This document shows, piece after piece, positions 31,290 through 45,293 of a stretch of 51,608 nt of DNA. The position numbers were made by a program, and so were the translations under genes. Source of the DNA: Bacteroidia bacterium (lineage in GTDB: Bacteria; Bacteroidota; Bacteroidia; Flavobacteriales_D; Crocinitomicaceae); assembly GCA_030427935.1 (NCBI GenBank), contig JAUICI010000010.1, positions 1 to 51,608 on the forward strand, given 5' to 3'. The notes beneath the pieces are model-generated. The model did no database searches. It worked only from the letters and a program-made list of their open reading frames with translations, and was not told the origin of the DNA. Every line of letters starts with the position of its first letter. Within the stretch, counting starts at the first letter, position 1.

Positions 31290-31399
31290 AACCTACAAAG
31301 ATCCACCTCAAGAACGCAATCTTTTTGCGCAATCAACTTTATTTGAAAATTTGAGAAAATAAAGCAACTATTCCTTGTAAGTTTCGTTTTCCCAATGCA

Positions 31400-31427
31400 G
31401 ATTCGCAGAAAATTTTGCGAACGAATC
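31400..31427. promoter_or_regulatory. Imperfect palindrome / dyad element (CGCA-N8-TGCG family)
   Basis: GATTCGCAGAAAATTTTGCGAACGAATC. Nested arms GATTCG/CGAATC and TTCGCA/TGCGAA. Confidence 0.25.
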
Positions 31428-31433
31428 CAGAAA

Positions 31434-31562
31434 ATGGAAACAATTAGAAATGAACATATCAAGCATTGTGCATCCTTACGCCCGCAAGGCAGTAAGATGA
31501 TATCGAAATTTTATCAGCTAGATGAAATCACGGACAAAGAATGCTTGATCTCGACACGATAA
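31434..31562 (+). CDS. Possible small ORF (42 aa), speculative
   Basis: ATG...TAA frame METIRNEHIKHCASLRPQGSKMISKFYQLDEITDKECLISTR, followed about 30 nt later by a strong terminator. No homology evidence. Confidence 0.15.
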   Translation: METIRNEHIKHCASLRPQGSKMISKFYQLDEITDKECLISTR

Positions 31563-31592
31563 TAGAGAATACTCTACATAAGATATTGTGAA

Positions 31593-31620
31593 CCCGGTCA
31601 GCATTTGATCGGGTTTTTTT
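31593..31620 (+). terminator. Strong rho-independent terminator
   Basis: CCCGGTCA-gcatt-TGATCGGG followed by T7. Confidence 0.6.
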
Positions 31621-31654
31621 GTGCCCAAAATTTTAAATGAATTTTTAGGATAGT

Positions 31655-31860
31655 GCTTGCTCGCTTAGAAAAGGCATTCACACGGGAGGGTGAAATAGTG
31701 TGGTCGACTTAGTCGATTTTCAGGGACCGAAATTCATTTATTGGAAATGCAAGCAGATAGGTGACTGCACCGCTCTTGAAAAGCGACGATCTTAACAGAC
31801 TTGGGGGTTCGAACTTAGCGTAGCGATCTCATGAGACGCTAGTCGAGTACTCCCCCCGTT
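31655..31860. other. GC-rich structured non-coding patch immediately 3' of the WYL-PhyH gene (minus strand); candidate 3' element or small RNA
   Basis: GGGGG...CCCCCC enclosing near-perfect palindrome TAGCG-A-TCTCATGAGA-CGCTA and palindromic GTTCGAAC. Shares motifs with patch 14750-15010. Confidence 0.25.
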
Positions 31861-31864
31861 TCCG

Positions 31865-33601
31865 CTAAATCAATTCAGGTAATTTCTCTGCCTCTGCCCA
31901 TTTGAGTTCTTTGGGCAGTTTGGCTGAGGAAAACTCGAGATGAATGACTCTTCTCTTTTTGGGTTTTTTACTTTTAGCTGAAGCATGCAGAATAAGCGGC
32001 TTCATCAAATGGATACCCCCTGTTTCAACTTCACATAAAACTGGAATACTATTTTCTGCAATCATCATGATCTCTTCCGAAGACAATTGCTTCTTATGTG
32101 AACCCGGAATGACCTTCAAAGCCCCATTTTCTTCGTGAGCTGGATCTAAGTGAATCCGAATAGAAAATGTCTGCTGATTGATCTCTTCTGGTGGTCGAAC
32201 ACTGATAATTCCATCCTTGTTTGTCCAACCAGAATACCCCTCCACCTTCACTTTTTTCTTCACATTAATAGGGACGTCTTGATGCATGGTGACATACCAA
32301 TTGTCTTCATCTGTTTTATTGAAATAAATGGCTTTGACCAGTTTGACTTTGGGGTCAATTTTAGTAATGATCTCAAGTAAATTTTTATTGAAAATGAATT
32401 TCTTCAAATCTGGTATTTCTTTGAGAATGGCCCGAATCGCGTAAGGCTTTTTGAGCTGTTTTTCTTTAAAATAATTATTCAGCAAGGGGGCCATTTTATT
32501 GATTTCGCGATTTGTATAGACGTTATTCATCAAAGCAAAACCACGATGTTCGAGTTGCTTGGAACTCTTTTCAATATTTTTAGTCGAAAGTACCGTTCGA
32601 TAATTATCCTGTGCCCATTGAAGTCTTTGTTCAATGTTTCTTTTCAATTTTTCAGGCTGGATGACACGCATCACTTCACCATAACTTAAAATCTCTTTTT
32701 CCAATTCAAAATTATGTTGAACATCCAGAGAGATTGTAACTCCATAATAATCCTTATCAATCACTTTCTGACTCGAATGCAAAGGTTTCGTGATCACATA
32801 GGGTGCATGTTTATGGGTAATGAACAGTTTGACTTTCTCTGTTGGCATTGTCGGCGATACGGATACTCCAATGGCATTTTGAAAATAGGTTTGTGGGTCA
32901 AAATCTAAATTATGGACAAACTTCGCCTCAGATTTTTCAAGGCTAATGATTCGGTCTAGAGCCAAATTCATCAGTTGGGCATCCTTTTTCTTTTTCCCAA
33001 TTACAAACCATCTATTTCTGAATTCTTTCAGTAAATAAGGATGAAAATCAAAACTATTGGCTTGCCTTGCTTTAAAGGATTGATAGGTAATCAAAATCGG
33101 ACGATAATTAATAATTGCTTGATACAATTCATCCAAGAAATCCAATCCTTTCAAGTTTTCATTCTTTTCAAAATCAATCACAGGCATTTGATCCGTTTGC
33201 TGACTATGCACATGATCCTCCAATTTTTGAACCATGGAGTCCAATTCCCTGAAATGAGAAAATCCTTTAAACTGTTTTAAGAACTCCACTGCTTCCGTAA
33301 GTTTACTCAAATCCTGATCTGAAATCGGAATATTGGTAATAGAATAATCCGGATCTTCATATGTATAAAAACGCTTATCGACTACAATGATGGGTGCATT
33401 ATAACCCAATTTATCCGATCTCATGATTTGAATATCCCCTTGAACTGTTCTTCGACTTACCCCTTTATCAATTCCTTCATATTCATATAAGGCATCTGAA
33501 CACGCATCAATCAAATCTTCCAAAGTCCATTTACGAAAGCGGTTCTGTAGACATTTATCAATGGTTTTATATCGGATTAAAGCATTCTTATTAACGGCCA
33601 T
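31865..33601 (-). CDS. Fusion protein: N-terminal HTH + WYL-domain regulator, C-terminal PhyH-like 2OG-Fe(II) dioxygenase
   Basis: N-terminus MAVNKNALIRYKTIDKCLQNRFRKWTLEDLIDACSDAL... and NRWFVIGKKKKDAQLMNLALDRIISLE (WYL-type motif) match the abundant Bacteroidota WYL-regulator family. C-terminal approx 250 aa has dioxygenase motifs MHQDVP (HxD), IHLDPAHEENGALKVIPGSHK, IHLMKPLILHAS. Start trimmed to the internal Met at 33601. Confidence 0.7.
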   Translation of the reverse strand: MAVNKNALIRYKTIDKCLQNRFRKWTLEDLIDACSDALYEYEGIDKGVSRRTVQGDIQIMRSDKLGYNAPIIVVDKRFYTYEDPDYSITNIPISDQDLSKLTEAVEFLKQFKGFSHFRELDSMVQKLEDHVHSQQTDQMPVIDFEKNENLKGLDFLDELYQAIINYRPILITYQSFKARQANSFDFHPYLLKEFRNRWFVIGKKKKDAQLMNLALDRIISLEKSEAKFVHNLDFDPQTYFQNAIGVSVSPTMPTEKVKLFITHKHAPYVITKPLHSSQKVIDKDYYGVTISLDVQHNFELEKEILSYGEVMRVIQPEKLKRNIEQRLQWAQDNYRTVLSTKNIEKSSKQLEHRGFALMNNVYTNREINKMAPLLNNYFKEKQLKKPYAIRAILKEIPDLKKFIFNKNLLEIITKIDPKVKLVKAIYFNKTDEDNWYVTMHQDVPINVKKKVKVEGYSGWTNKDGIISVRPPEEINQQTFSIRIHLDPAHEENGALKVIPGSHKKQLSSEEIMMIAENSIPVLCEVETGGIHLMKPLILHASAKSKKPKKRRVIHLEFSSAKLPKELKWAEAEKLPELI

Positions 33602-33638
33602 TTCAAAAAATTTTAAATAAAAATACAAGAAATATTTC

Positions 33639-33662
33639 ACTACGCAAATAGGCTGCGCACAA
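33639..33662. promoter_or_regulatory. Dyad motif ACTACGCAAATAGGCTGCGCACAA (CGCA-N7-TGCG family), about 40 nt upstream of the WYL-PhyH gene and 125 nt upstream of tRNA-Tyr
   Basis: One of three near-identical 24-nt motifs (others at 38933 and 40228). Confidence 0.35.
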
Positions 33663-33786
33663 TCTAAATTACTTTGCTTCATCGTTCATTGATAAACAGA
33701 ATGAGAAACAGAAAGAGAATGAGCATTATTAATTAACAATCAACACAAATCTCTCATTCTTCGCTCTGTTTCTCATTCTGACAACA

Positions 33787-33870
33787 GGGGGTGCGCCAAC
33801 GTTGGAGAGTTGGGCTGGACTGTAAATCCAGTGGCTTAAGCCTGAATAGGTTCGATTCCTATCACCCCCA
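33787..33870 (+). tRNA. tRNA-Tyr (anticodon GTA), class II
   Basis: Manual fold: acceptor GGGGGTG/CACCCCC, anticodon stem CTGGA/TCCAG with loop CTGTAAA, variable hairpin GGCTTAAGCC, T-arm ATAGGTTCGATTCCTAT. Confidence 0.7.
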
Positions 33871-33935
33871 CGGAGGCAGAGTGAGTGCGGAGTGTGAGAA
33901 TGAGGGTATCTCATTCCGGTTCTCATTCTGACAAA

Positions 33936-34008
33936 GGAGAAGTAGCAAAGCTGGTCTATGCGTCCCGCTGAAAACGGGAAGATAATGGTTCGACTCCATT
34001 CTTTTCCA
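33936..34008 (+). tRNA. tRNA-Phe (anticodon GAA)
   Basis: Acceptor GGAGAAG/CTTTTCC (one G-U), anticodon stem TCCCG/CGGGA with loop CTGAAAA, T-arm AATGGTTCGACTCCATT. Confidence 0.65.
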
Positions 34009-34023
34009 CAGGTAGATTTTTAG

Positions 34024-34112
34024 AGAAGAGTAAGTCCATAATTGGTATTGGCGCACCCTGCTAAGGTGTTCATCACTTTGGTGGTGTGAGGGTTCGAATC
34101 CCTCCTCTTCTG
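34024..34112 (+). tRNA. tRNA-Ser (anticodon GCT), class II
   Basis: Acceptor AGAAGAG/CTCTTCT, anticodon loop CTGCTAA, long variable arm CATCAC/GTGGTG, T-arm GAGGGTTCGAATCCCTC, discriminator G. D-arm irregular. Confidence 0.6.
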
Positions 34113-34127
34113 CTCAAAAATTTAGAT

Positions 34128-34200
34128 GCAATTGTAGCTTAACGGGTTGAGCACCGGTCTTTTAAATCGGGGGTAGTAGGTTCGAGCCCTACCAGTTGCA
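34128..34200 (+). tRNA. tRNA-Lys (anticodon TTT)
   Basis: Acceptor GCAATTG/CAGTTGC, D-arm GCTTAACGGGTTGAGC, anticodon stem CCGGT/ATCGG with loop CTTTTAA, T-arm GTAGGTTCGAGCCCTAC. Confidence 0.7.
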
Positions 34201-34387
34201 CAGTAGTAGAGCGAGAATACAGAACGAGAATGAGAATCTTCATTCTACTTCTGCTCCTCATTCTGCAAAAGATCTTCATCCGAAAAGTCGGAGAAGCGCG
34301 GAAAGAAGCCAAATTCTGAAGACCTGATCTGTGTGTTGAAGCACAGAGGTATTCGCTTGGTAAAGTTGAATATGCCGATTCATTATT

Positions 34388-34553
34388 TAGCTGTCTTTCT
34401 CTTGACGGTATAGGTCAGAGGTTCGAATCCTCTCATAGCTAGGACTATGTAGCTCAGTTGGGTAGAGCAATATCACAATCGCGCGGGTTCGAATCCCGCC
34501 ACGCTTAAGGTGCGTGTAGCTCAGTTGGTCAGAGCACTAGACTGTAAATCTAG
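34388..34553 (+). pseudogene. Three consecutive degenerate tRNA-like fragments, none with a complete cloverleaf
   Basis: 34388-34441: acceptor, T-arm (AGAGGTTCGAATCCTCT) and CATAGCT but no anticodon arm. 34442-34507: D-arm TAGCTCAGTTGGGTAGAGCA joined directly to T-arm GCGGGTTCGAATCCCGC. 34509-34553: acceptor, canonical D-arm and anticodon arm CTAGA-CTGTAAA-TCTAG (GTA, Tyr-like) with no T-arm. The 3' strand of each unit is complementary to the 5' start of the next (CATAG/CTATG, CACGC/GCGTG). Confidence 0.4.
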
Positions 34554-34842
34554 TATCGTTAAGAAGTTGATCTCTTCAGAAAAGGATCACCAATAAATCA
34601 AGTAGCGCAGGTCTGTTGCGTAGTTTCTTCGGAAACCATGAAACAGCTTTTAGCCTGCCCTGAGTCAGAACAAGATTTGAAAACAAGTTTTGTTTCGAAA
34701 GCCAAACTCTGAAGGGGGGAAATTTTTCAGATAAGGTTGGGAAAACAAAACTCCTTTGATAGTCGCCTTCTGTCTCCGCCGATTAGGAGCGACTTGGTTG
34801 CTTGATTTGTTTTTGAATTAGTAATTATTAAACCTGTCAAAT

Positions 34843-35946
34843 ATGACTTATGTTAGAATCAACAAAGGAAACATCGGGTTGGTTTTCCGATATGGAGACC
34901 TTGTCGATGTGGTGAAGCCAGGACTTCACTGGATTGGATGGAACGACCGAGTAACATCCTACAATGTATATCAACCATTTACTTCGCCTTACAAGGATGA
35001 AGTTTTGCTTGAACACCCTAAATTCAAAGCAATGGTGGATATTGTAGAAGTACGAGACAATGAAATCGCCCTTCGATTTGAGAACGGCTATTTTAAGGGT
35101 GTTTTGAAAACAGGAAAGTACATTTTCTGGAAGGGATTTGTGGACTATGAATTCAAAATCTTGGATACTTCAAGTACGAAAGTCATCCAGAATGAATACA
35201 TCAATAAAATCCAGGATACCGTGATTACAAGTCTCGTTAAAATGTTTCATTTGGAAGAGTATGAAAAAGGATTGCTCTTTGTTGACGGGCATTTCATGCG
35301 AACATTGCCATCTGGACGCTACAGATTCTGGAAAAACAAAACGCCAATTGAATTGGTCAAAGTGGATACAAGAAAACAGCAAATGGAGGTTTCTGGTCAA
35401 GAAATTTTAACGAAAGACAAGGCTTCCATTCGAGTAAGTTTCTTCATCCATTTCCAAGTCAAAGACGTGAAGAAAGCGATCTTGGAAAACAAAAGTTATG
35501 CAGATCAACTCTATATGTTGATGCAATTTGCCTTGAGAGAGTTCATTGGAACATTGACTTTGGACGAATTGCTTGAAAAGAAAAATGAGATCGGAAAATA
35601 CGTGATGAGCAAATCCGAGAAAAAGGCTGAAGAGCTTGGGGTGGAATTGCAAAATGCCGGAATCCGTGATATTATTCTTCCAGGTGATGTGAAAGAGATC
35701 ATGAATCAAGTTCTTGTTGCTCAGAAAAGAGCTCAAGCAAATATCATCACAAGAAGAGAGGAGACTGCGTCTACCAGAAGTTTGCTTAATACAGCAAAAC
35801 TGATGGAAGATAATGCCATGCTTTTCAAGTTGAAAGAAATGGAATACATGGAAAAAATTGCCGAAAAGATTGGAGAAGTTACCGTAAAAGGAGATGGATC
35901 CACTTTGGAACAATTGACCGATATTTTCATTTCGAAAAAGAAATAA
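34843..35946 (+). CDS. SPFH/Band-7 (stomatin/flotillin-like) domain protein
   Basis: SPFH-like core in the C-terminal half (EILTKDKASIRVSFFIHFQVKDV...), N-terminal beta-rich extension. Confidence 0.75.
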   Translation: MTYVRINKGNIGLVFRYGDLVDVVKPGLHWIGWNDRVTSYNVYQPFTSPYKDEVLLEHPKFKAMVDIVEVRDNEIALRFENGYFKGVLKTGKYIFWKGFVDYEFKILDTSSTKVIQNEYINKIQDTVITSLVKMFHLEEYEKGLLFVDGHFMRTLPSGRYRFWKNKTPIELVKVDTRKQQMEVSGQEILTKDKASIRVSFFIHFQVKDVKKAILENKSYADQLYMLMQFALREFIGTLTLDELLEKKNEIGKYVMSKSEKKAEELGVELQNAGIRDIILPGDVKEIMNQVLVAQKRAQANIITRREETASTRSLLNTAKLMEDNAMLFKLKEMEYMEKIAEKIGEVTVKGDGSTLEQLTDIFISKKK

Positions 35947-35989
35947 AGTTCTACCTGAGGTGATGACCTTGGGTGGAATTTTAAATTTT

Positions 35990-36008
35990 CCCTATACGAA
36001 GTATAGGG
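35990..36008. terminator. Hairpin after the SPFH gene
   Basis: CCCTATAC-gaa-GTATAGGG. No clean U-tract. Confidence 0.4.
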
Positions 36009-36374
36009 GCAAAAAAGTCGAAAATTTTTCTTGCGATTGTAAAATTTTACTGCTTATCTTTGTCCTCGATAACGCTCTTCAAAAAGTATTCACTTTTTAA
36101 AACTGAGCAATTATGATGTTATTTAGTCTACATATCAAAAAAGCGATCGGGAAAAGCTAGACGGCTAGTCTGGACTTCAAAATATTCATCCTGATCCATG
36201 TGATTGGGATTTTTTTTGTCCTAAGATTTCGACCCGTTCGAAACATCACATCATGCTGGAGCCTCTTGAAGGGCCCCCAGCGAGTTTATCATTTTTTTAT
36301 TGAGACTGAATTTTGAAAGTATTCAATCTTCAGTCAGGCATTCTTAGCACTAAGTATGCTCAAATTTTTATGCT

Positions 36375-37778
36375 ATGGGCAAACAGAAATTAAAAGGAAA
36401 AGACCTAAAAAAAATTGGGTTTCGTTCCGATAAAGCAAAGAGTCTAGCCATCAATATCATGGCGACTCATTTTAAACATTTACATAGAGTTAAAAAGCTC
36501 GAATTATTAGAAAAATTAATTGAAAATCCGGAAGACTACGCAGAGGATAAGTACTTAAAACCTCTGGCGGAAGAGTTCATGGAAAAAGTGGTTAAGGAAA
36601 CATTCACAAGTTATAAACTTAGGTATGATTCCAAGCCTTATAAGGTTTACGGGAAACAATTCATCTGCCGAAACACGATCAACCAAATGGATCAGGCCAT
36701 GCGACTCCCGGTTGCTGAAAAAGGCGCCCTAATGCCAGACGCTCATGTTGGATACGGGCTTCCCATCGGGGGAGTTTTGGCGACAAAAAATGAAGTAATT
36801 CCTTATGCGGTTGGACTCGATATTGGTTGCAGAATGTCAGTTACCTTATTTGATGTGGAATCCGATAGAATTGATCGAGATCGTTACCAGCTAAAAATGG
36901 CTTTGCAAGAAGAAACGCAGTTTGGAATCAGCAAAGTAGTAGCCGGTAATGCCGAACATTCCGTATTGGATCGGCCAGAATTCCATGCAACTGAAGTTCT
37001 AAGAAAACTTCATGGAAAAGCAGCCATGCAGTTAGGTTCCTCAGGAGCAGGAAACCACTTCGTTGAATTTGGCGAAATGGAGATTTTAGAAGAAAACAGT
37101 CTGAATATTCCTGCTGGAAAATACATGGCCTTGGTTTCGCATTCGGGAAGTCGAGGGCTCGGAGCAGCGGTTGCGCAGTATTATACAAGAATTGCACAAG
37201 AAGTCTGTAAACTTCCAAAAGGTAGCCAGCATTTGGCTTGGTTGGATCTCGACTCGGAAGCTGGAATGGAGTATTGGCTTGCCATGAATTTGGCAGGTGA
37301 TTATGCAAAAGCTTGTCACGATGTCATTCATTCAAAAATTGCGAAAAGGTTGAATCTAAAAAAGCTGATTACGGTTGAAAACCACCACAATTTCGCCTGG
37401 AAAGAAAAACAGGAAAATGGTGAAACACTAATCGTTCATAGAAAAGGTTCGACACCAGCGAAGGAGGGAGAATTGGGATTTATTCCTGGCTCGATGTCGC
37501 ATTCAGGCTATTTAGTTTCCGGAAAAGGAAAACAAGACGCACTCTGTTCTGCCAGTCATGGTGCCGGCAGAAAATTATCGCGATCCAAGGCTAAATCTAG
37601 CTTAACTGGATCGGACATGAAAAAAGAATTGAAACAAAAACGGGTCACCCTAATCGGTGGCGCAGTGGATGAATCGCCTTTTGCTTATAAAAATATAGAA
37701 GAGGTTATCGGGGCTCAAAAGGAGCTCATCAAAGTTGAAGGCCAATTCAATCCACGAATAGTACGAATGGCAAAATAG
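36375..37778 (+). CDS. rtcB: RtcB-family RNA ligase (PrfH-associated paralog, N-terminal about 70 aa extension)
   Basis: RtcB motifs DAHVGYGLPIGG, SSGAGNHFVEFG, SASHGAGRK. Confidence 0.85.
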   Translation: MGKQKLKGKDLKKIGFRSDKAKSLAINIMATHFKHLHRVKKLELLEKLIENPEDYAEDKYLKPLAEEFMEKVVKETFTSYKLRYDSKPYKVYGKQFICRNTINQMDQAMRLPVAEKGALMPDAHVGYGLPIGGVLATKNEVIPYAVGLDIGCRMSVTLFDVESDRIDRDRYQLKMALQEETQFGISKVVAGNAEHSVLDRPEFHATEVLRKLHGKAAMQLGSSGAGNHFVEFGEMEILEENSLNIPAGKYMALVSHSGSRGLGAAVAQYYTRIAQEVCKLPKGSQHLAWLDLDSEAGMEYWLAMNLAGDYAKACHDVIHSKIAKRLNLKKLITVENHHNFAWKEKQENGETLIVHRKGSTPAKEGELGFIPGSMSHSGYLVSGKGKQDALCSASHGAGRKLSRSKAKSSLTGSDMKKELKQKRVTLIGGAVDESPFAYKNIEEVIGAQKELIKVEGQFNPRIVRMAK

Positions 37779-37784
37779 AATAAA

Positions 37785-38417
37785 ATGAAAGAATTTATAG
37801 TACAGATCAGTGCAGGAACAGGCCCGGCCGAATGTTGTTGGGTCGTTTCCAAAACACTAAAGGAATTTATGAAAGAAGCACGTGATCAAAGTATTGAAAT
37901 TGACGAAATAGGGAGATTAAAAGGTGATCAGAATGGTACATTAAAGTCCGTTTCACTATTTATAAAGGGAATGCGAGTTGACCAGTTTCTAGAAGAGTGG
38001 ACAGGTTCGATTCAATGGATAGGCAAAAGTCCTTTTCGAAAATTCCACAAAAGGAAAAACTGGTTTATTGGAATTCAAACTTTTGATTCCAAATCTGAAC
38101 CCAATTTCGATTCCAAAACGATCAAGTTTGAAACCTTTAGATCATCTGGACCCGGAGGTCAGTTCGTGAACAAAGTTGAAACCGCTGTAAGAGCGATTCA
38201 CATTCCAACTAAACTTTCGGTCACAGCTAGCGAAACAGCCTCGCAATCGATGAATAAAAAGATTGCCATAGGAAAATTGAAAACAAAATTAGATGAATAC
38301 AAAATGCAGAATTTGGTTCTTTTAAACTCGAACAAATGGATTGCCAACAAACAAGTGAAAAGAGGAAATCCAACTCGAGTTTATGAAGGAGACAAATTCA
38401 GACTAAAACAAAAATAA
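37785..38417 (+). CDS. prfH: Peptide chain release factor H-like protein (class I RF catalytic domain only)
   Basis: 210 aa with GGQ motif (SSGPGGQFVNKVETAVRAIHIPT) and no codon-recognition domain. Immediately downstream of rtcB, as in the known rtcB-prfH pair. Confidence 0.75.
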   Translation: MKEFIVQISAGTGPAECCWVVSKTLKEFMKEARDQSIEIDEIGRLKGDQNGTLKSVSLFIKGMRVDQFLEEWTGSIQWIGKSPFRKFHKRKNWFIGIQTFDSKSEPNFDSKTIKFETFRSSGPGGQFVNKVETAVRAIHIPTKLSVTASETASQSMNKKIAIGKLKTKLDEYKMQNLVLLNSNKWIANKQVKRGNPTRVYEGDKFRLKQK

Positions 38418-38418
38418 A

Positions 38419-38925
38419 ATGGACACTGCATTGGCAAACAACTATTACTTAAAGGCTTTGGATAATTATCCTTACGACCTAACTGAGTTTTTGGAGGCCA
38501 TAAACTATGCCCTTGCTTACGATGAAGATCACGCAGATGCTCATTGTTTGATGGGATTATTTTATATGGATCAACTTCAAAAATTCGATGATGCCAAATA
38601 TCATTTCAATAAAGCTTTGGCTTCGGATCTTGATAATCTGAAGGCTTATTATTCTTTGATTAGATGTTTAATTGCAACTGAAGAATACGCACAAGCTTTT
38701 AAAGTGATTGAGCATGCGCAAAAGGTCAAAGGCATTTCTTCAGAGGCCTTGGATCATAGAATTGCTATCATCATGGAAAGAAAACTTCAGTTTAGATCCG
38801 CCAAGAAATTTTTAAAGAGAGCGATCGAAAAGTCTTATTTCACAAGTGATAGAGAGTTTTATGAATCCGAATTATCAAGAGTAAAAGACAAAATTTCGAA
38901 AAGAAAATCGAAAAAAAATAAATAA
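38419..38925 (+). CDS. Small TPR-like helical-repeat protein, hypothetical
   Basis: 168 aa. Start is 1 nt after the prfH stop, likely same operon. Confidence 0.4.
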   Translation: MDTALANNYYLKALDNYPYDLTEFLEAINYALAYDEDHADAHCLMGLFYMDQLQKFDDAKYHFNKALASDLDNLKAYYSLIRCLIATEEYAQAFKVIEHAQKVKGISSEALDHRIAIIMERKLQFRSAKKFLKRAIEKSYFTSDREFYESELSRVKDKISKRKSKKNK

Positions 38926-38932
38926 TTTTTTT

Positions 38933-38956
38933 ACAACGCAAAAAGACTGCGCACTA
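38933..38956. promoter_or_regulatory. Dyad motif ACAACGCAAAAAGACTGCGCACTA (CGCA-N7-TGCG family)
   Basis: Second copy of the 24-nt motif, preceded by a T-run, directly after the TPR gene and upstream of the second tRNA array. Confidence 0.35.
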
Positions 38957-38995
38957 GCTCTTTTACTTTGAATCATCATTAAGAACAAAAGACAT

Positions 38996-39027
38996 CCCCC
39001 TCTGTCAAAAATAGATTAGGCAGAGGG
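38996..39027 (+). terminator. Hairpin CCCCTCTG-(16 nt)-CAGAGGGG
   Basis: 8-bp GC-rich stem followed by TTTAAAAAAA. Confidence 0.4.
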
Positions 39028-39162
39028 GTTTAAAAAAACAAAAAATGAACAGATTGAATTTACATATCACATTACCAAATCGACTGGATCTCCAGCCGAA
39101 TCATGATGAATTCTATTCAATCGGGAAGCCATATTTTTAGATGCGAGTAAGCGTTACGACTA

Positions 39163-39199
39163 AAAAGCCTTCTTGATGAATTTCAAGAAGGCTTTTTTA
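39163..39199. terminator. Bidirectional rho-independent terminator
   Basis: A5-GCCTTCTTGA-(6 nt)-TCAAGAAGGC-T6, perfect 10-bp stem. Confidence 0.6.
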
Positions 39200-39202
39200 T
39201 TT

Positions 39203-39274
39203 CTAGGGGGATAACGATGGCTGTTTGCCTACCTTGGACGTAGGAGGTTGTAGGTTCGAATCCTACCCCTTAGA
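39203..39274 (+). tRNA. tRNA-Pro (anticodon TGG), atypical D-arm
   Basis: Acceptor CTAGGGG/CCCTTAG, anticodon stem CCTAC/GTAGG with loop CTTGGAC, T-arm GTAGGTTCGAATCCTAC. D-stem only about 3 bp. Confidence 0.55.
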
Positions 39275-39353
39275 CAGTATTGAGCAAGAGTGAAGAGCAA
39301 GGGTTTTGAGGGATTTATTCCTGTTGCTCTTGCACTCAACTCAACACTCAATC

Positions 39354-39424
39354 GGTTCTGTAGTTTAATGGTAAAATGCCTGACTGTCTATCAGGTGTCG
39401 AGGGTTCGATTCCCTTCAGAACCG
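39354..39424 (+). tRNA. tRNA-Asp (anticodon GTC)
   Basis: Acceptor GGTTCTG/CAGAACC, D-arm GTTTAATGGTAAAAT, anticodon stem CCTGA/TCAGG with loop CTGTCTA, T-arm GAGGGTTCGATTCCCTT. Confidence 0.7.
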
Positions 39425-39446
39425 CAAAACACAAGAGTGAATGTGA

Positions 39447-39471
39447 AGTCCCGATAGCTATCGGGAGAGAG
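39447..39471. repeat. Palindromic spacer element AGTCCCGATAGCTATCGGGAGAGAG (copy 1)
   Basis: Perfect 18-nt palindrome TCCCGATAGCTATCGGGA. About 60 nt of flank is also shared with copy 2. Confidence 0.6.
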
Positions 39472-39514
39472 CGATGCAATTTCCTAACTCTCCACACTCG
39501 CACTCACTCTGATA

Positions 39515-39587
39515 ATGGGGTATAGTTCAATGGAACAGAACAGCTGAATACGAATCAGCAGATGTGGGTTCGACTCCTGCTACCCCA
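39515..39587 (+). tRNA. tRNA-Arg (anticodon ACG)
   Basis: Acceptor TGGGGTA/TACCCCA, D-arm GTTC-AATGGAACA-GAAC, anticodon stem GCTGA/TCAGC with loop ATACGAA, T-arm GTGGGTTCGACTCCTGC. Confidence 0.65.
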
Positions 39588-39662
39588 ACTAAATAAAGTG
39601 AGTTTGGAGAGCGAGAGTGATGATGTGTCCGCATTCTTCACTCTCACACTCGCTCTATAACC

Positions 39663-39736
39663 GCGGGGATGGCGGAATTGGTATACGCGCCTGACTTAGA
39701 ATCAGGATTTTGAGAGTTCGAGTCTCTCTCCCCGTA
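39663..39736 (+). tRNA. tRNA-like with Leu anticodon TAG but only a 5-nt variable loop (class-I shape)
   Basis: Acceptor GCGGGGA/TCCCCGT, Leu-type D-arm GCG-GAATTGGTATA-CGC, anticodon stem CCTGA/TCAGG with loop CTTAGAA, variable ATTTT, T-arm GAGAGTTCGAGTCTCTC, discriminator A. Confidence 0.5.
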
Positions 39737-39815
39737 CTATTTGAGTAGAGAACAAGAGTAAAGAGTTCCGAGGGCGGACTTCCTCATGCTCGAAACCCTC
39801 TACTCTTGAACCCAT

Positions 39816-39889
39816 GCCCCACTAGTCCAATTGGCAGAGACAAAGGACTTAAACTCCTTCCAGTCCAGGTTCGAGTCCTGGGTGGGGTA
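39816..39889 (+). tRNA. tRNA-like with Leu anticodon TAA but only a 5-nt variable loop (class-I shape)
   Basis: Acceptor GCCCCAC/GTGGGGT, D-arm GTC-CAATTGGCAGA-GAC, anticodon stem AAGGA/TCCTT with loop CTTAAAC, variable CCAGT, T-arm CCAGGTTCGAGTCCTGG, discriminator A. Confidence 0.5.
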
Positions 39890-39909
39890 CTTGTTTAGAG
39901 TGCGTGTGG

Positions 39910-39934
39910 AGTCCCGATAGCTATCGGGAGAGAG
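39910..39934. repeat. Palindromic spacer element AGTCCCGATAGCTATCGGGAGAGAG (copy 2)
   Basis: Identical 25-nt core to 39447-39471. Confidence 0.6.
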
Positions 39935-39971
39935 TGAGGTGATTTCCTCGCTCTTCACTTTCGGTCCCACT

Positions 39972-40044
39972 CTAGATTTATGGTGTTTCTAGTTTAACAG
40001 GTAAAATACCTCACTGTGAATGAGGAGAAAAGGGTTCGAGTCCC
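39972..40044 (+). tRNA. tRNA-His (anticodon GTG)
   Basis: Extra 5' G (G-1) opposite C73, D-arm GTTT-AACAGGTA-AAAT, anticodon stem CCTCA/TGAGG with loop CTGTGAA. T-stem only about 3-4 bp (AAGGG / CCCGG). Exact ends uncertain by 1 nt. Confidence 0.5.
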
Positions 40045-40125
40045 GGAAACACCCAAAGAAGTGCAAAGTTTGAGTGATCAATATAGAGGTTCTTCAATTT
40101 GTTCACTCAAACGACACAATGAAAA

Positions 40126-40196
40126 TGCTTTGTCGTCTAGTGGCAGGACACTTCACTTTGACTGAAGAGACGGTGGTTCGAATCCATCCAAAGCAA
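40126..40196 (+). tRNA. tRNA-Gln (anticodon TTG)
   Basis: Acceptor TGCTTTG/CAAAGCA (U1:A72 as in Gln tRNAs), D-arm GTCT-AGTGGCA-GGAC, anticodon stem CTTCA/TGAAG with loop CTTTGAC, T-arm GGTGGTTCGAATCCATC. Confidence 0.65.
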
Positions 40197-40227
40197 CAGA
40201 TAAGTTGAATTTTTAAATTTTTATTTT

Positions 40228-40251
40228 ACTACGCAAATACTTTGCGTATAA
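40228..40251. promoter_or_regulatory. Dyad motif ACTACGCAAATACTTTGCGTATAA (CGCA-N7-TGCG family), about 100 nt upstream of the second rtcB
   Basis: Third copy of the 24-nt motif. Perfect 8-bp inverted repeat TACGCAAA/TTTGCGTA. Confidence 0.35.
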
Positions 40252-40285
40252 GAGGTTTTACTTTGAAATATAAATGAAATAAACG

Positions 40286-40323
40286 CCCGAGGATCACCTT
40301 AGAAATCAGACATGGATCCTCGG
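40286..40323. promoter_or_regulatory. Stable hairpin in the rtcB leader
   Basis: CCCGAGGATC-(18 nt)-GATCCTCGGG, perfect 10-bp stem ending 29 nt before the ATG at 40352. Confidence 0.4.
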
Positions 40324-40351
40324 GTAAATAAAAAACTTAAATTTAGAAATT

Positions 40352-41512
40352 ATGAAAAATGTTGTTAGCACAGAGAGAATTCCAATCAAATTGTGGTTGG
40401 AAGATTTAGAGGCTGAAGCTTTATCTCAAGCTAAGAATTTGGCGAATTTACCATTTGCCTATAAGCATATTCCAATCATGCCAGATTCGCACACCGGATA
40501 TGGGATGCCAATTGGTTCAATTTTGGCGACGAAAGGAGCTGTGATCCCAAATGCCGTAGGTGTAGATATTGGTTGTGGTATGTGCGCACAAAAGACGAGT
40601 TTAACTGAGATCTCAACCGATGAGATCAAGAAAGTTTTGGGAATCGCCAGAAACTTAATTCCTCTTGGATTTAATTCTCATGACGAAAAACAAGACGAAA
40701 AGTACATGCCACAAGGATGGGAAGACCTTGAAATTGTCTCGAGAGGGTATTTGAAAGCGAGAAAGCAGGTGGGAACACTTGGTGGAGGAAACCATTTTAT
40801 TGAACTACAAAAAGGTGATGACGGATTTATCTGGGTCATGATTCATTCAGGTTCAAGAAACTTGGGTCATACCGTTGCCAGCCATTACAACCGAGTGGCA
40901 AAGAAAATGAATGAGAAATTTCATTCTGTAGTGACTCCAAAAATGGATTTGGCCTTCTTCCCAATTGAAATGAGAGAGGCCAAAGATTATATGAATGAAA
41001 TGAAATACTGTGTGGAATTTGCTTTGGCGAATAGAAAGTTAATGATGTTGAGAATGATGGAAGCTTTGACCGAAGTAAAAGGTTCATTTGAAACGGATGA
41101 GATCATCAATGAATCGCACAACTTCGCGGCATGGGAGAACCATTTTGGTGCCAATGTATTGGTTCACAGAAAAGGTGCAACCAGAGCTTATGAAGGAGAA
41201 CTTGGAATGATTCCAGGGTCTCAAGGAACCAAATCCTATATTGTAAAAGGACTTGGAAACCCAGAAAGTTTCATGTCTTGTTCGCATGGTGCAGGTAGAA
41301 AAATGGGTAGAAAACAAGCCCAAAGATCGCTTGACTTAGAACATGAAAGAAAGTTTTTGGACGACCAAAACATCGTTCATGCAATCAGACATACAAAAGA
41401 TTTGGATGAAGCCTCATCAGCTTATAAAGACATTCATGAGGTGATGGGAAATCAAACAGATCTTGCGGAGATTGTGGTTGAATTACAACCATTAGGAGTA
41501 TTGAAAGGGTAG
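40352..41512 (+). CDS. rtcB: RtcB-family RNA ligase (second copy, compact 386 aa form)
   Basis: DSHTGYGMPIGS, LGGGNHFIELQ, SCSHGAGRKMGR. Confidence 0.85.
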   Translation: MKNVVSTERIPIKLWLEDLEAEALSQAKNLANLPFAYKHIPIMPDSHTGYGMPIGSILATKGAVIPNAVGVDIGCGMCAQKTSLTEISTDEIKKVLGIARNLIPLGFNSHDEKQDEKYMPQGWEDLEIVSRGYLKARKQVGTLGGGNHFIELQKGDDGFIWVMIHSGSRNLGHTVASHYNRVAKKMNEKFHSVVTPKMDLAFFPIEMREAKDYMNEMKYCVEFALANRKLMMLRMMEALTEVKGSFETDEIINESHNFAAWENHFGANVLVHRKGATRAYEGELGMIPGSQGTKSYIVKGLGNPESFMSCSHGAGRKMGRKQAQRSLDLEHERKFLDDQNIVHAIRHTKDLDEASSAYKDIHEVMGNQTDLAEIVVELQPLGVLKG

Positions 41513-43640: not shown

Positions 43641-45284
43641 ATGAACAACCAAAAATCAGAGCCATTCAAGATTGGCTTGTGTATGGCGGGAGCTGTTTCC
43701 GCCGGAGCTTATACGGCTGGAGTGATGGATTACCTTATCGAAGCACTTGACGAATGGGAAAAACAGAAAAAAGAAAATCCAGAAACTACCCCACTTCATG
43801 ATGTTGTGATTCCCGTAATGGGAGGAGCTTCAGCTGGGGGAATGACGAGCATCATCGCTTCTAATGCCTTGCAGCAAGAAATCGATCCTGTGAGAAGCAT
43901 GGCAGATATTGAAAATGGGCGCAAACGCAATAAACTCTTTAATGCTTGGGTCAATTTGAGTCGGGAAGACATGTTTCCTGAATTGTTGAAAACGGATGAT
44001 TTAGAGGACGGAAAAGTGGAGTCCCTTTTCAATGCAAAGTTCATCGATGAGATTGCTCAAAACACCTTAAAGTCAAATGAGGATTTAGAGTATGTAAAAC
44101 GAAACTATATTGCGGAAAATCTGAAGGTTTTTACCACGCTGACCAACCTCAACGGCATCAAGTTCAAACAGGAATTCATGGCAGATTCTGACAATTCGAG
44201 TTACCACATTTCCAAACATTCGGATTTTGCCTGTTTTGAGATTAACGCGAATCAGTACAAGGGTAAGGGTTGGATACCACTTGATTTCAGGGATGAGAAA
44301 CAGCGGAAACTAGCAATCGATTCTGCCATGGCTACTGGTGCGTTTCCGATTGGACTTCAAGCTCGTAAAGTAGTACGACCAAGTCAATATGTGGCTGATT
44401 CCATTTTTCACGATGATGTAGAAATGGATGTAAGCAGGCCAGATTTCGAGACTTTAAATATTGACGGAGGTACCATCAATAATGAGCCTTATGAAAAAGT
44501 GCAAAAAGTCTTGGCCAATGGTGGTGAATTAGAAAAATCATACAGTAAAGCCACTTCCACCGTTTTAATGATCGATCCTTTTCCGAGTGAAGAACCTCCG
44601 GTTGATCGCATGGATGATCAAGTTGGAAGTGTGATTTCGGCAACGCTTTCTGCCATGGTGAATCATCTTAGATTTGAACCGAAAAGTATCAGCGATAGTA
44701 AAGATCCGGATGATGCCAGTGTCTATTTAATTGCACCGGTTCGCTATGAAAAGGACAAAAGTATTGAAGGAAAAAAGGCTATTGCTTGCGGATTTTTCAA
44801 TGGTTTTGGTGGCTTTATCCATAAAGATTTCAGACTGCATGACTATTTTCTTGGTCGCGCCAATTGTGAGAAATTTCTTAGACAGTATTTCACGATTCCG
44901 GTTGAAGATCAGAACCCAATCATCCAAAAGGGTTATGCCCACTTAAAAGACGACTCCGATTTTGTGGTTACCAATAACTCAACTAAAAAGGGACGAAAAG
45001 AATATCCAATTATCCCACTTTTTAAAGAAGAAGGTGATTTGTATTTACCTCCTTTCAAAAATGGAAGCTGGCCAAGTATCTATTCGAAAGAAGTCGATCG
45101 TTTTAAGCCTAAATTGAAAAAGCGTTTTGCAAAAATCATTCTGAATATTGGCAAATTCAAACCTCAGACCAAAGCAGCACTTTGGATTGGAACCCATTTA
45201 ATACTGAAAAACATGGCTGCGAAAAAATTCCTGGATTTGATTAAGAAGGATATGGAAGATTGGAAATTGCTGGAAAAAAAGTAG
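43641..45284 (+). CDS. Patatin-like phospholipase (PNPLA) with about 200-aa C-terminal extension
   Basis: Gly-rich N-terminal loop GLCMAGAVSAGAYTAG, nucleophile elbow GGASAGG (GxSxG), catalytic Asp in NIDGGTINNEP (DGG). Confidence 0.85.
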   Translation: MNNQKSEPFKIGLCMAGAVSAGAYTAGVMDYLIEALDEWEKQKKENPETTPLHDVVIPVMGGASAGGMTSIIASNALQQEIDPVRSMADIENGRKRNKLFNAWVNLSREDMFPELLKTDDLEDGKVESLFNAKFIDEIAQNTLKSNEDLEYVKRNYIAENLKVFTTLTNLNGIKFKQEFMADSDNSSYHISKHSDFACFEINANQYKGKGWIPLDFRDEKQRKLAIDSAMATGAFPIGLQARKVVRPSQYVADSIFHDDVEMDVSRPDFETLNIDGGTINNEPYEKVQKVLANGGELEKSYSKATSTVLMIDPFPSEEPPVDRMDDQVGSVISATLSAMVNHLRFEPKSISDSKDPDDASVYLIAPVRYEKDKSIEGKKAIACGFFNGFGGFIHKDFRLHDYFLGRANCEKFLRQYFTIPVEDQNPIIQKGYAHLKDDSDFVVTNNSTKKGRKEYPIIPLFKEEGDLYLPPFKNGSWPSIYSKEVDRFKPKLKKRFAKIILNIGKFKPQTKAALWIGTHLILKNMAAKKFLDLIKKDMEDWKLLEKK

Positions 45285-45293
45285 TTTCATACT

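Follow-up and report, generated by a model that had tools for sequence, protein, structure and literature searches.

A dyad operator beside a DriD-like WYL regulator very likely marks an RNA-repair and translation-stress regulon in Bacteroidota

Known regulators of RNA repair and of damage responses

Genes for RNA repair, encoding RtcB, Ro60 with Y RNA, Hen1-Pnkp, RlaP, and PrfH, are widespread. To our knowledge, the regulation of such genes is understood only in enterobacteria, where RtcR is the regulator, and, recently, in cyanobacteria, where it is TrcR. Burroughs and Aravind are said to have predicted WYL-domain transcription factors in RNA-repair contexts in 2016. The DNA analysed here is a 51,608-nucleotide stretch of a Bacteroidia bacterium of the Crocinitomicaceae (assembly GCA_030427935.1, contig JAUICI010000010.1, positions 1 to 51,608), in the following called the window. 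It is chromosomal, has a G+C content of 37.5%, and encodes a MurF-Alr fusion and proteins sorted by the type IX secretion system (T9SS). Between 31.3 and 41.5 kb it contains a gene for a WYL-domain regulator, two tRNA arrays, two rtcB genes, and four copies of a 23-bp dyad. There is a good probability that this dyad is the operator of the adjacent WYL factor, which resembles DriD, and that it is built into composite promoters, as judged from the sequences and by analogy with DriD. The operator very likely marks out a phylum-wide RNA-repair and translation-stress regulon of the Bacteroidota whose regulator was previously undescribed. No description of this operator was found in the literature on WYL factors together with RtcB or RNA repair.

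In Salmonella and E. coli the operon set rsr-yrlBA-rtcBA is controlled by RtcR, a sigma-54 enhancer-binding protein with a CARF domain, and tRNA fragments are given as its signal (PMC7790460). RtcB, Ro60, and Y- or tRNA-like RNAs are the output of this RNA damage-induced system, and the predicted Bacteroidota regulon likewise holds RtcB, TROVE, and YrlA-like RNAs. The latter regulon is larger, however, and includes tRNA arrays, Hen1, RlaP, and SPFH genes. Its regulator is of the helix-turn-helix (HTH)-WYL type and not of the CARF-AAA+ type, and its promoters have a sigma-A -7 box (the -24/-12 motif of sigma-54 was not specifically searched for). No CARF-AAA+ regulator was found in the window or in the related loci, where the WYL protein is the sole regulator. 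In Anabaena a single factor, TrcR, controls rtcB, an SPFH/slipin gene, and a tRNA array that is silent under normal conditions; this regulon is induced by translation stress and is autoregulated (PMC10272220, PMC8421152). The gene content is thus similar to that of the window, while TrcR is a repressor of the ribbon-helix-helix type whose 8-bp site, resembling TGTAGTAT, overlaps the -10 element, unlike the HTH-WYL protein and the 23-bp dyad 5' of the -7 box found here. In function, the predicted regulon is the Bacteroidota counterpart of both systems; since the regulator families and the sites are unrelated, this is apparently a case of non-orthologous replacement of the regulator.

The closest relative in structure and in promoter layout is DriD of Caulobacter crescentus, a homodimeric activator of a DNA-damage response that is independent of SOS. 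It consists of a winged HTH (wHTH), a three-helix bundle (3HB), a WYL, and a WCX domain, and is the best structural match to the N-terminal 340 residues of the window regulator. DriD binds ATACGAC-N7-GTCGTAT (CGxC-N7-GxCG) with an AT-rich spacer, and the site is found in the regulator's own promoter in 68 of 69 homologues (PMC10853764). A cryo-EM study of DriD from 2026 describes a rigid register, no -35 element, and an asymmetric site. The dyad of the window, with the half-sites ACTACGCA-N7-TGCGTAGT, shares the 4-bp CG-rich half-sites, the 7-nt AT-rich spacer, and the TAC flanks, as well as the location in the upstream region of the regulator's own gene. Both sites cover the -35/-33 position, keep a constant spacing to the -10/-7 element, and belong to promoters that have no upstream element. 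Asymmetric binding, with activation directed away from the regulator gene, would be a further likeness. The two proteins differ in that they have about 15% sequence identity, belong to different phyla, and use different promoter grammars, being -7/-33 in the window. The regulon consists of RNA-repair and tRNA genes instead of DNA-repair genes, and the window regulator has an additional C-terminal PhyH dioxygenase.

Two other groups of WYL factors are relevant for the comparison. The mycobacterial PafBC is a damage activator working by 'sigma adaptation', in which the -10 element is normal and a factor-specific element replaces the -35 element; its hybrid promoters have no -35 element (PMC8635444). 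PafBC also matches the window regulator in structure and in profile. It is, however, a heterodimer-like fusion in which one HTH reads a non-palindromic -26 element while the other touches region 4 of sigma, whereas the site in the window is a two-fold dyad, implying a homodimer. BrxR and CapW are HTH-WYL-WCX one-component factors that act on inverted repeats beside their own genes (PMC9503650). These repress phage-defence operons and are not among the top structural matches, and no defence gene was found behind the motif at the genome-locus or metagenome sites. The window regulator belongs to a mechanistically new branch of the DriD-type WYL factors, with another regulon, another promoter grammar, and an added enzyme domain.

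The dyad and its promoters

The consensus was derived from 59 aligned regions upstream of WYL orthologues, read away from the WYL gene. The operator is a 23-bp ACTRCGCA-AAAAGAY-TGCGYAGT, followed by 8 unconserved bases and a -7 box (nAnCTTTG). The family consensus as a whole reads aAatttt.ACTRCGCAAAAAGAYTGCGYAGT-N8-A.CTTTG, in which CGCA-N7-TGCG is invariant. The sigma-A -7 box of Bacteroidota, TAnnTTTG, occupies positions -12 to -5 of the promoter (PMC9723704). From this the predicted start falls 38 nt past the first C of CGCA, and the dyad would be centred at about -31 and span -42 to -20. No TTG is found at any position compatible with a -33 element, and the dyad occupies the place where such an element would normally lie. 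The distance to the -7 box is nearly constant. When 202 sites were oriented by the spacer alone, the TTTG of the box began at +30 in 162 and at +31 in another 15 (88% together), and the 8 bases in between are unconstrained despite this fixed register. The 7-nt spacer is itself conserved and asymmetric, with an A-tract on its upstream side, both in sites near the regulator and in those far from it.

In form, the promoter of an alternative sigma factor, for instance a stress-induced ECF sigma, would also look like this, with two blocks, a conserved upstream one and a downstream box, at a fixed spacing and without a -33 element. This explanation is highly improbable. The block nearer the start is the -7 box of the housekeeping sigma-A, a sigma -35 element does not take the form of a 23-bp dyad made of two identical half-sites, and the loci encode a dimeric HTH factor but no sigma or anti-sigma gene.

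The preliminary description of this DNA had named a promoter-associated hairpin family as the alternative to a shared operator, and a REP-like repeat or RNA element acting as a cruciform or transcribed stem-loop would be of the same kind. The site is indeed palindromic; the copy named S3 below (ACGCAAATACTTTGCGT) is a perfect palindrome with a 7+7 inverted repeat, and a look-alike at 34605 resembles a terminator. The conservation does not follow a stem, however. Constant complementarity is limited to the 4-bp core, and in the pair flanking it the non-pairing combination A..C is the commonest, being found in 45 of 109 sites (41%) and in 29 of 93 sites of the metagenome set. Since the spacer is also conserved and asymmetric, and since the dyad lies 5' of the -7 box and of the predicted start and would not be transcribed towards the target, the sequences mark the dyad as a protein-binding DNA site and not as a transcribed RNA hairpin. 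Nor is it dispersed like a repeat; only 1 control match was obtained in 1.34 Mb, and the copies in the window are all within 9 kb. A hairpin or repeat can for practical purposes be discounted. No described RNA family in Rfam covers the dyad or the leaders. A GC-rich hairpin with an A-run does recur about 20-55 nt past the predicted start whatever gene lies downstream (in the window at 38997-39028 and 40285-40326). As a general 5' leader hairpin behind every operator this received modest support and was rejected; the leaders fold with a mean of -14.1 kcal/mol compared to -10.9 kcal/mol for shuffled sequences, but are no more structured than the sequence 400 nt downstream.

The sites in the window were scored using a weight matrix trained on other genomes only, leaving out the window, and the noise ceiling was set to 12.8 bits, which is the maximum over 20 shuffles of the window. 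Four true family copies, S0 to S3, were found, all within 9 kb (Table 1). The three 24-nt sites first noticed, at 33639 (S1), 38933 (S2), and 40228 (S3), are exactly there and score far above the shuffle maximum, at 21-33 bits. The T-run seen before each of them is a feature of the whole family, corresponding to the upstream consensus aAatttt. S1-S3 also have TGCG-N12-TTACTTTG in common. The distances agree with those given earlier as well: S1 lies 37 nt from the WYL start codon (estimated at about 40 nt) and 125 nt before tRNA-Tyr, the first gene of array 1, S2 lies before the second array, 247 nt ahead of tRNA-Pro, and S3 lies 101 nt (about 100 nt) upstream of rtcB2. The true start of the WYL gene is the ATG at 33601, giving 578 aa as in the homologues and not the 605 aa of the open reading frame (ORF). 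Simple pattern searches point in the same direction. ACGCAA-N6-TGCG with at most one mismatch has 8 matches in the window compared to 1.25 expected, and all six matches to CGCA-N6-9-TGCG in the 51.6-kb window are found inside 31315-40246. A chance origin of the sites in the window is excluded.

A related dyad reported at 31400 does exist, but it does not belong to the family. Its spacer is 8 nt long, the flanks that are invariably R and Y in the family are T and A, and its score is under 5 bits. The real fourth site is S0, which had been missed. Two further candidates were rejected. GCGCAGGTCTGTTGCGT at 34605-34621 (on the minus strand ACTACGCA..TGCGC) scores 9.3 bits, which is at the level of the shuffle noise, and has no -7 box; a terminator scan shows it as a terminator-like hairpin 3' of the tRNA-like elements. 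A degenerate operator near 36017, upstream of rtcB1, has a 9-nt spacer and no matrix match, and that region is an ordinary TTG-N21-TATCTTTG promoter.

Table 1. Operator copies, promoters, genes, and leader regions in the window
Feature	Position	Strand	Basis and remarks
S0 operator ATTGCGCAAAAAGATTGCGTTCTTGAGGTGGATCTTTG + -7 box	31296..31333	-	28.4 bits; predicted start ~31291
S1 operator ACTACGCAAATAGGCTGCGCACA + -7 box TTACTTTG	33639..33676	+	33.4 bits; predicted start ~33681, towards tRNA array 1; divergent from WYL gene
S2 operator + -7 box	38933..38970	+	32.6 bits; predicted start ~38975, towards 228-nt leader and tRNA array 2
S3 operator + -7 box	40228..40265	+	21.3 bits; predicted start ~40270, towards rtcB2
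Putative WYL-gene promoter	33618..33648	-	-33 TTTG (33648-33645) inside operator, 19 nt, -7-like TATTTTTA (33625-33618)
Regulator gene, wHTH-3HB-WYL-WCX (DriD-like) + PhyH-type Fe(II)/2-oxoglutarate dioxygenase, 578 aa	31865..33601	-	Pfam WYL, WCX, PhyH; Foldseek
tRNA array 1 (Tyr-GTA, Phe, Ser-GCT, Lys)	33787..34201	+	ARAGORN, Rfam
tRNA-like / Y-RNA-like (YrlA-like) elements, 3' of array 1	34409..34595	+	tRNA and YrlA models
SPFH/Band-7 (slipin-like) gene	34843..35946	+	Pfam
rtcB1-prfH-TPR control region, no operator	36031..36218	+	promoter TTG-N21-TATCTTTG (36031-36062), 15-codon ORF 36113-36160, terminator 36188-36218
rtcB1 (467 aa), prfH (210 aa), TPR gene; ribosome rescue/repair operon	36375..38925	+	Pfam
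Array 2 leader, candidate attenuator	38975..39202	+	GC hairpin 38997-39028, 31-codon ORF 39045-39140, terminator 39162-39197 + T-run
tRNA array 2 (Pro, Asp, Arg-ACG, Leu-TAG, Leu-TAA, His, Gln)	39203..40197	+	ARAGORN, Rfam
rtcB2 (386-aa RNA ligase), S3 target	40352..41512	+	Pfam RtcB, E=1e-108
tRNA-Ser(UGA)-like gene	31743..31863	+	T-loop insertion of 37 nt (31812-31848, hairpin); adjoins 3' end of WYL gene

The sites are conserved at orthologous positions. Among 78 testable genomes, 61 have an exact CGCA-N7-TGCG no more than 300 nt upstream of the WYL gene, most commonly 40 nt from the start codon, and the matrix finds one or more sites in 71 of 80 loci. The operator is present in Flavobacteriales, Cytophagales, Chitinophagales/Saprospiraceae, Bacteroidales, and Balneola. 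In locus L191, which is fully syntenic and has a regulator 71% identical to that of the window, all three sites are kept in place: between the WYL gene and array 1, before array 2 (L191:4371, the orthologue of S2), and before RtcB2 (L191:2745, the orthologue of S3). L192, with a regulator of 92% identity, retains S1 and S0, and S1 has the same position in both loci. The dyad and the -7 box of S0 are conserved in L192, and the orthologous site L191:15773 has a conserved flank.

The sites are also specific, and the spread over unrelated positions expected of a generic REP-like element was not seen. In 1.34 Mb of related loci the matrix gave 128 matches, corresponding to 110 distinct sites, compared to 1 in reversed-sequence controls. 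Relative to the WYL gene, each of the 110 lies upstream and almost all point away from it, and in 55 of the 80 genome loci a site lies within about 130 nt of the WYL start in constant orientation. The first feature downstream of the genome-locus sites is RtcB in 31 cases, Ro60/TROVE in 11, RlaP and T4-type RNA ligase in 3 each, and Hen1 in 2; DUF2828-vWA and TerD-like proteins, SPFH, and tRNAs or weak tRNA-like RNAs are found as well.

Metagenomes were searched with the exact 23-mer, motif first, to avoid the bias of starting from the regulator. This gave 110 exact matches, almost exclusively in the context of the WYL gene or of RNA-repair genes; 78 lie beside a divergent WYL gene. Nearly all of the other 32 are found before genes for RtcB, TROVE, Hen1, RlaP, TerD-like proteins, or tRNA-Tyr, or before the WYL gene itself, and 8 of the 110 have enough flanking sequence yet nothing recognisable there. 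A phage origin of the motif was considered and rejected; the viral contigs contain no exact match, and the window is chromosomal. It is improbable that another, unlinked transcription factor binds the dyad and that the WYL gene is a mere member of the regulon. The link to the WYL protein is indirect, being drawn in part by analogy, and the 32 metagenome matches mentioned are far from any WYL gene, although most of them are on short contigs. Against such a factor stand the 78 motif-first matches and the 55 genome loci in which site and WYL gene are neighbours, a half-site, 7-nt spacer, and own-promoter layout equal to those of the experimentally defined DriD operator, and the finding that no other regulator gene recurs in the loci examined. 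The site build resembling that of DriD, the position relative to the regulator gene, and the co-occurrence statistics together make a strong, though indirect, case for the WYL protein itself as the binder.

The WYL protein and its likely mode of action

The regulator has WYL (E=7e-12), WCX (E=5e-8), and PhyH domains in Pfam, and consists of a winged HTH, a 3-helix bundle, the WYL domain, and a WCX dimerisation domain before the dioxygenase. Its AlphaFold model has a pLDDT of 79, with low confidence for the linker at residues 90-150, and aligns with full-length DriD over about 340 columns (E=4e-12, Foldseek). After the DriD chains follow complexes of DriD with RNA polymerase, and then PafBC; neither BrxR nor CapW is represented in the top 50. 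The family profile also gives weak matches to DriD and PafBC; at the sequence level, matches to DriD reach the WYL-WCX part alone and give no comparison of the recognition helix. The family is well conserved, with 60-70% identity across orders and at least 589 species matches.

The C-terminal 240 residues of the model match Fe(II)/2-oxoglutarate oxygenases. H440-x-D442, H539, and R550 of the PhyH domain (31865-32600, minus strand) are kept in all 21 aligned homologues, and the dioxygenase thus appears to be active. About one third of the fetched loci (L051-L080) align to residues 1-~340 of the regulator only, and these regulators appear to have no dioxygenase domain. Because many such loci still have the operator, the PhyH domain is probably accessory to DNA binding.

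In the mechanism that we propose, the WYL domain would bind a nucleic-acid ligand arising from RNA damage, and the ligand-bound dimer would recruit RNA polymerase to intrinsically weak promoters. RNA fragments are suggested as the ligand because DriD senses ssDNA, because RtcR responds to tRNA fragments, and because WYL factors have been predicted to sense RNA ends (PMC9503650). Transcription would be turned on in the direction away from the regulator gene, while the divergent WYL promoter would be occluded. The consensus on the WYL strand, TTTG-N19-TAtTTTT (47 loci), has its -33 TTTG within the operator, and for this reason the bound protein should repress its own gene. In the window the regulon would comprise array 1 with the tRNA-like RNAs and probably the SPFH gene, the leader with array 2, rtcB2, and the minus-strand transcript from S0. 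The wider Bacteroidota regulon would include RtcB, Ro60/TROVE, Hen1, RlaP, T4-type RNA ligase, TerD-like, vWA, and SPFH proteins, tRNA-Tyr, and tRNA-like RNAs.

Activation in the manner of DriD, by a ligand-bound WYL dimer, is the direction of control that we moderately favour, since the rigid register, the missing -33 element, and the asymmetric site are as in DriD, and PafBC likewise acts at promoters without a -35 element. The same operator and regulator could instead form a repressor system, in which the WYL protein blocks the -33 region until a damage signal acts on the WYL or PhyH domain and releases it. A dyad spanning -42 to -20 has the classic geometry for occlusion. WYL factors of defence systems have been described as negative regulators (PMC9503650), the parallel cyanobacterial regulon with a tRNA array, rtcB, and a slipin is under the repressor TrcR (PMC10272220), and the position of the WYL gene's own -33 TTTG inside the site implies repression at least there. 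What speaks for an activator is the register. A repressor needs overlap only, while an activator needs to be placed exactly, and the -7 box spacing is fixed within 1 bp in 88% of the 202 sites although the sequence between is free and a -33 element is missing. DriD promoters display the same properties, and the top structural matches are the activators DriD and PafBC, with BrxR and CapW absent from the top 50. Repression at the outward promoters is therefore possible but rather unlikely.

Several observations weigh against an operator of the WYL factor in DriD-type promoters. No site at all was found in 9 of the 80 loci (3 of which have less than 300 nt of upstream sequence), and the exact dyad is absent within 300 nt upstream in 17 of the 78 genomes. 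The most obvious repair operon of the window, rtcB1-prfH, has no matrix match of 5 bits or more upstream, and there is no site in L191 either. The transcript from S0 would run antisense into the 3' end and stop codon of the convergent housekeeping gene murF-alr, and no recognisable target was found for it there; the L191 orthologue of S0 precedes a 1058-aa membrane protein that the window does not have. The -7 boxes of the window read TTACTTTG, which is one base away from the family consensus, and the conserved asymmetry of the spacer is not accounted for. A site over the -33 position would suit a repressor too, as BrxR and CapW are, and the connection between regulator and operator comes from co-occurrence plus analogy. 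Nevertheless, the suggestion made in the preliminary description, that a shared operator ties the regulator, the tRNA arrays, and rtcB together, is supported by the conservation, the specificity, the geometry, and the fold of the regulator.

If the dyad is the operator of the DriD-like factor, a phylum with gut, marine, and fish-pathogenic species would gain the regulator that was missing for RNA repair, together with a precisely defined operator and a predicted set of targets. Promoter recognition of the DriD and PafBC kind, known from DNA damage, would then extend to responses to RNA damage and to the -7/-33 promoters by which the Bacteroidota stand apart. 'Spare' chromosomal tRNA arrays under a damage-responsive switch would fit a role as emergency replacements, or as decoys against tRNA-cleaving toxins.

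Leader regions and neighbouring genes

Between S2 and array 2 there is a 228-nt leader with a fold z-score of -5.55, containing an ORF with an A-rich start context. The intrinsic terminator of the leader ends 5 nt before tRNA-Pro, and there is thus no room for a further promoter. The same layout, unconserved in sequence but likewise with A-rich start contexts of the ORFs, is found in five loci: the window, L191 (4100-4330, minus strand), L003, L017, and L193 (625-806, minus strand). In the four leaders tested, 13 of 30, 23 of 35, 29 of 48, and 11 of 57 in-frame codons can be read by tRNAs of the array downstream (nucleotide-shuffle p=0.007, 0.0004, <5e-5, and 0.018, respectively, for ORFs that were chosen post hoc). 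All four have 1.8- to 5.5-fold more cognate codons in frame than in either of the other two frames, and the ORF in L003 has 12 consecutive array-cognate codons. All five leaders also have, 0-26 nt ahead of the stop codon, a stretch that could form a short duplex (-5.7 to -10 kcal/mol) with the 5' half of the terminator stem. These sequence features suggest that the array 2 leader may be a leader-peptide attenuator opening only when the tRNAs of the array are short.

The rtcB1-prfH-TPR operon, which has its own promoter, may be preceded by a second attenuator. Its leader ORF is kept in frame in three genomes, with the versions MMLFSLHIKKAIGKS, MILYRTHIAKVIGKS, and MLEFTTHTKQAIRKG; the genomes are those of the window, L191 (7078-7250, minus strand), and L152 (2230-2420). 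The last part of the ORF, GATCGGGA, can pair with the stem of the terminator in its 5' half, and this pair covaries as G.T, G-C, and A-T in the three genomes. Possibly, this leader is suited to sensing stalled ribosomes. The prfH product matches the PrfH equivalog TIGR03072 with 229 bits, and PrfH-RtcB has been described as a ribosome rescue and repair pair (PMC9304027).

Both leaders are similar to the trp, his, leu, and thr attenuators, and to those of erm and cat, in having a short translatable ORF, an intrinsic terminator 22-30 nt past the stop codon, and an ORF end that is complementary to the terminator stem in its 5' half. They differ from known attenuators in that the controlled genes are tRNAs or a ribosome-repair operon, instead of genes for amino-acid biosynthesis, and in that the regulatory codons match tRNAs encoded downstream. 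No description of such attenuators was found in the literature on leader peptides with tRNA operons. We know of no tRNA operon that gauges the decoding capacity of its own products by attenuation, and if the modules act as proposed, they would represent a new use of attenuation.

Combined with the operator, the leaders allow a tentative model in which the Bacteroidota response to translation damage has two layers, the WYL regulon and the leader attenuators gating array 2 and rtcB1-prfH. In the first layer the DriD-like WYL factor, often fused to an apparently active dioxygenase, would sense RNA damage and, through the fixed-register operator in place of a -33 element, turn on RNA ligases, Ro60, Y-like RNAs, Hen1, RlaP, and normally silent arrays of spare tRNAs throughout the phylum. 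In the second, the Pro/Asp/Arg/Leu/His/Gln array would be gated by leader codons read by the same tRNAs, and transcription of array 2 would await an actual stalling of ribosomes that run short of these tRNAs, as after attack by an anticodon nuclease. The rtcB1-prfH operon would be gated by its 15-codon leader, which would report ribosome stalling in general.

The genes follow each other in the order WYL-WCX-PhyH (minus strand), tRNA array 1, the tRNA-like/YrlA-like elements, SPFH, rtcB1-prfH-TPR, tRNA array 2, and rtcB2. The two tRNA-like elements score 35 and 34 bits, both weak, with the tRNA model, and 41 and 37 bits with the YrlA model, where the gathering score is 69 and both thus fall short. 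A scan of larger ORFs of the window revealed no Ro60 gene, whereas Ro60/TROVE often follows the operator in other loci. The SPFH gene recurs 3' of the WYL/tRNA block in L191, L193-L195, and many metagenome loci. A few kb past rtcB2, at 43641-48176 on the plus strand, a gene for a patatin-like phospholipase is followed by one for a TPR-CHAT protein; the matrix scan of the window placed no operator at this defence-like pair.

Within the arrays the tRNAs are set apart by long inverted repeats (33692-33784 and 33872-33935, and in array 2 for instance 39276-39353 and 39426-39515). These use related words (gagaatgag / ctcattct; gagtg / cactc), resulting in hairpins flanking each tRNA, which may be processing signals. 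In other genomes tRNA-Tyr(GTA) is the first, and often the sole, tRNA behind the operator, as seen in 16 distinct leaders (among them L011, L014, L026, L032, L044, L048, L102, and L118), and a single damage-controlled copy of tRNA-Tyr seems to be a core member of the regulon. TerD-like C-terminal proteins (722-747 aa), a DUF2828/vWA protein, and an uncharacterised 594-aa protein are also encoded behind the operator (L041:2595, L038:4362, L191:12294-14537 and 15090, L020:9952, and L033:8137), and are candidates for new members of the RNA-repair regulon. In two Flavobacteriaceae genomes the orphan Flavo-1 RNA motif (RF01705) neighbours the operator, on the opposite strand and about 130-170 nt from a site that precedes RtcB (L009:5205-5360, plus strand, and L016:5631-5702, plus strand).

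The region around S0 has some features of its own. The other face of S0 (31324-31354, plus strand) reads TTTG-N19-AAAATTTG and is a possible divergent promoter for the 31395-31562 region; the -7 box of this face is not conserved in L192. The small ORF of 55 codons at 31395-31562 (plus strand), which spans the dyad at 31400-31427 and had been listed among the targets, has no family match and is probably not coding, its identity to L192 being 73% for amino acids compared to 88% for nucleotides. The dyad with the 8-nt spacer at its start may be an RNA hairpin. A terminator at 31590-31616 follows the ORF, and its tail, TTTTTTTGTGCCCAAAA, is seen again in L003 and L017, behind their leader terminators. 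The tRNA-Ser(UGA)-like gene is nearly identical in the window and L192, as are some 100 nt ahead of it, where the alignment as a whole has 88% identity. The L192 copy is without the insertion and scores 40 bits on the tRNA-Sec model, and relatives of the gene are found in L191 and L030.

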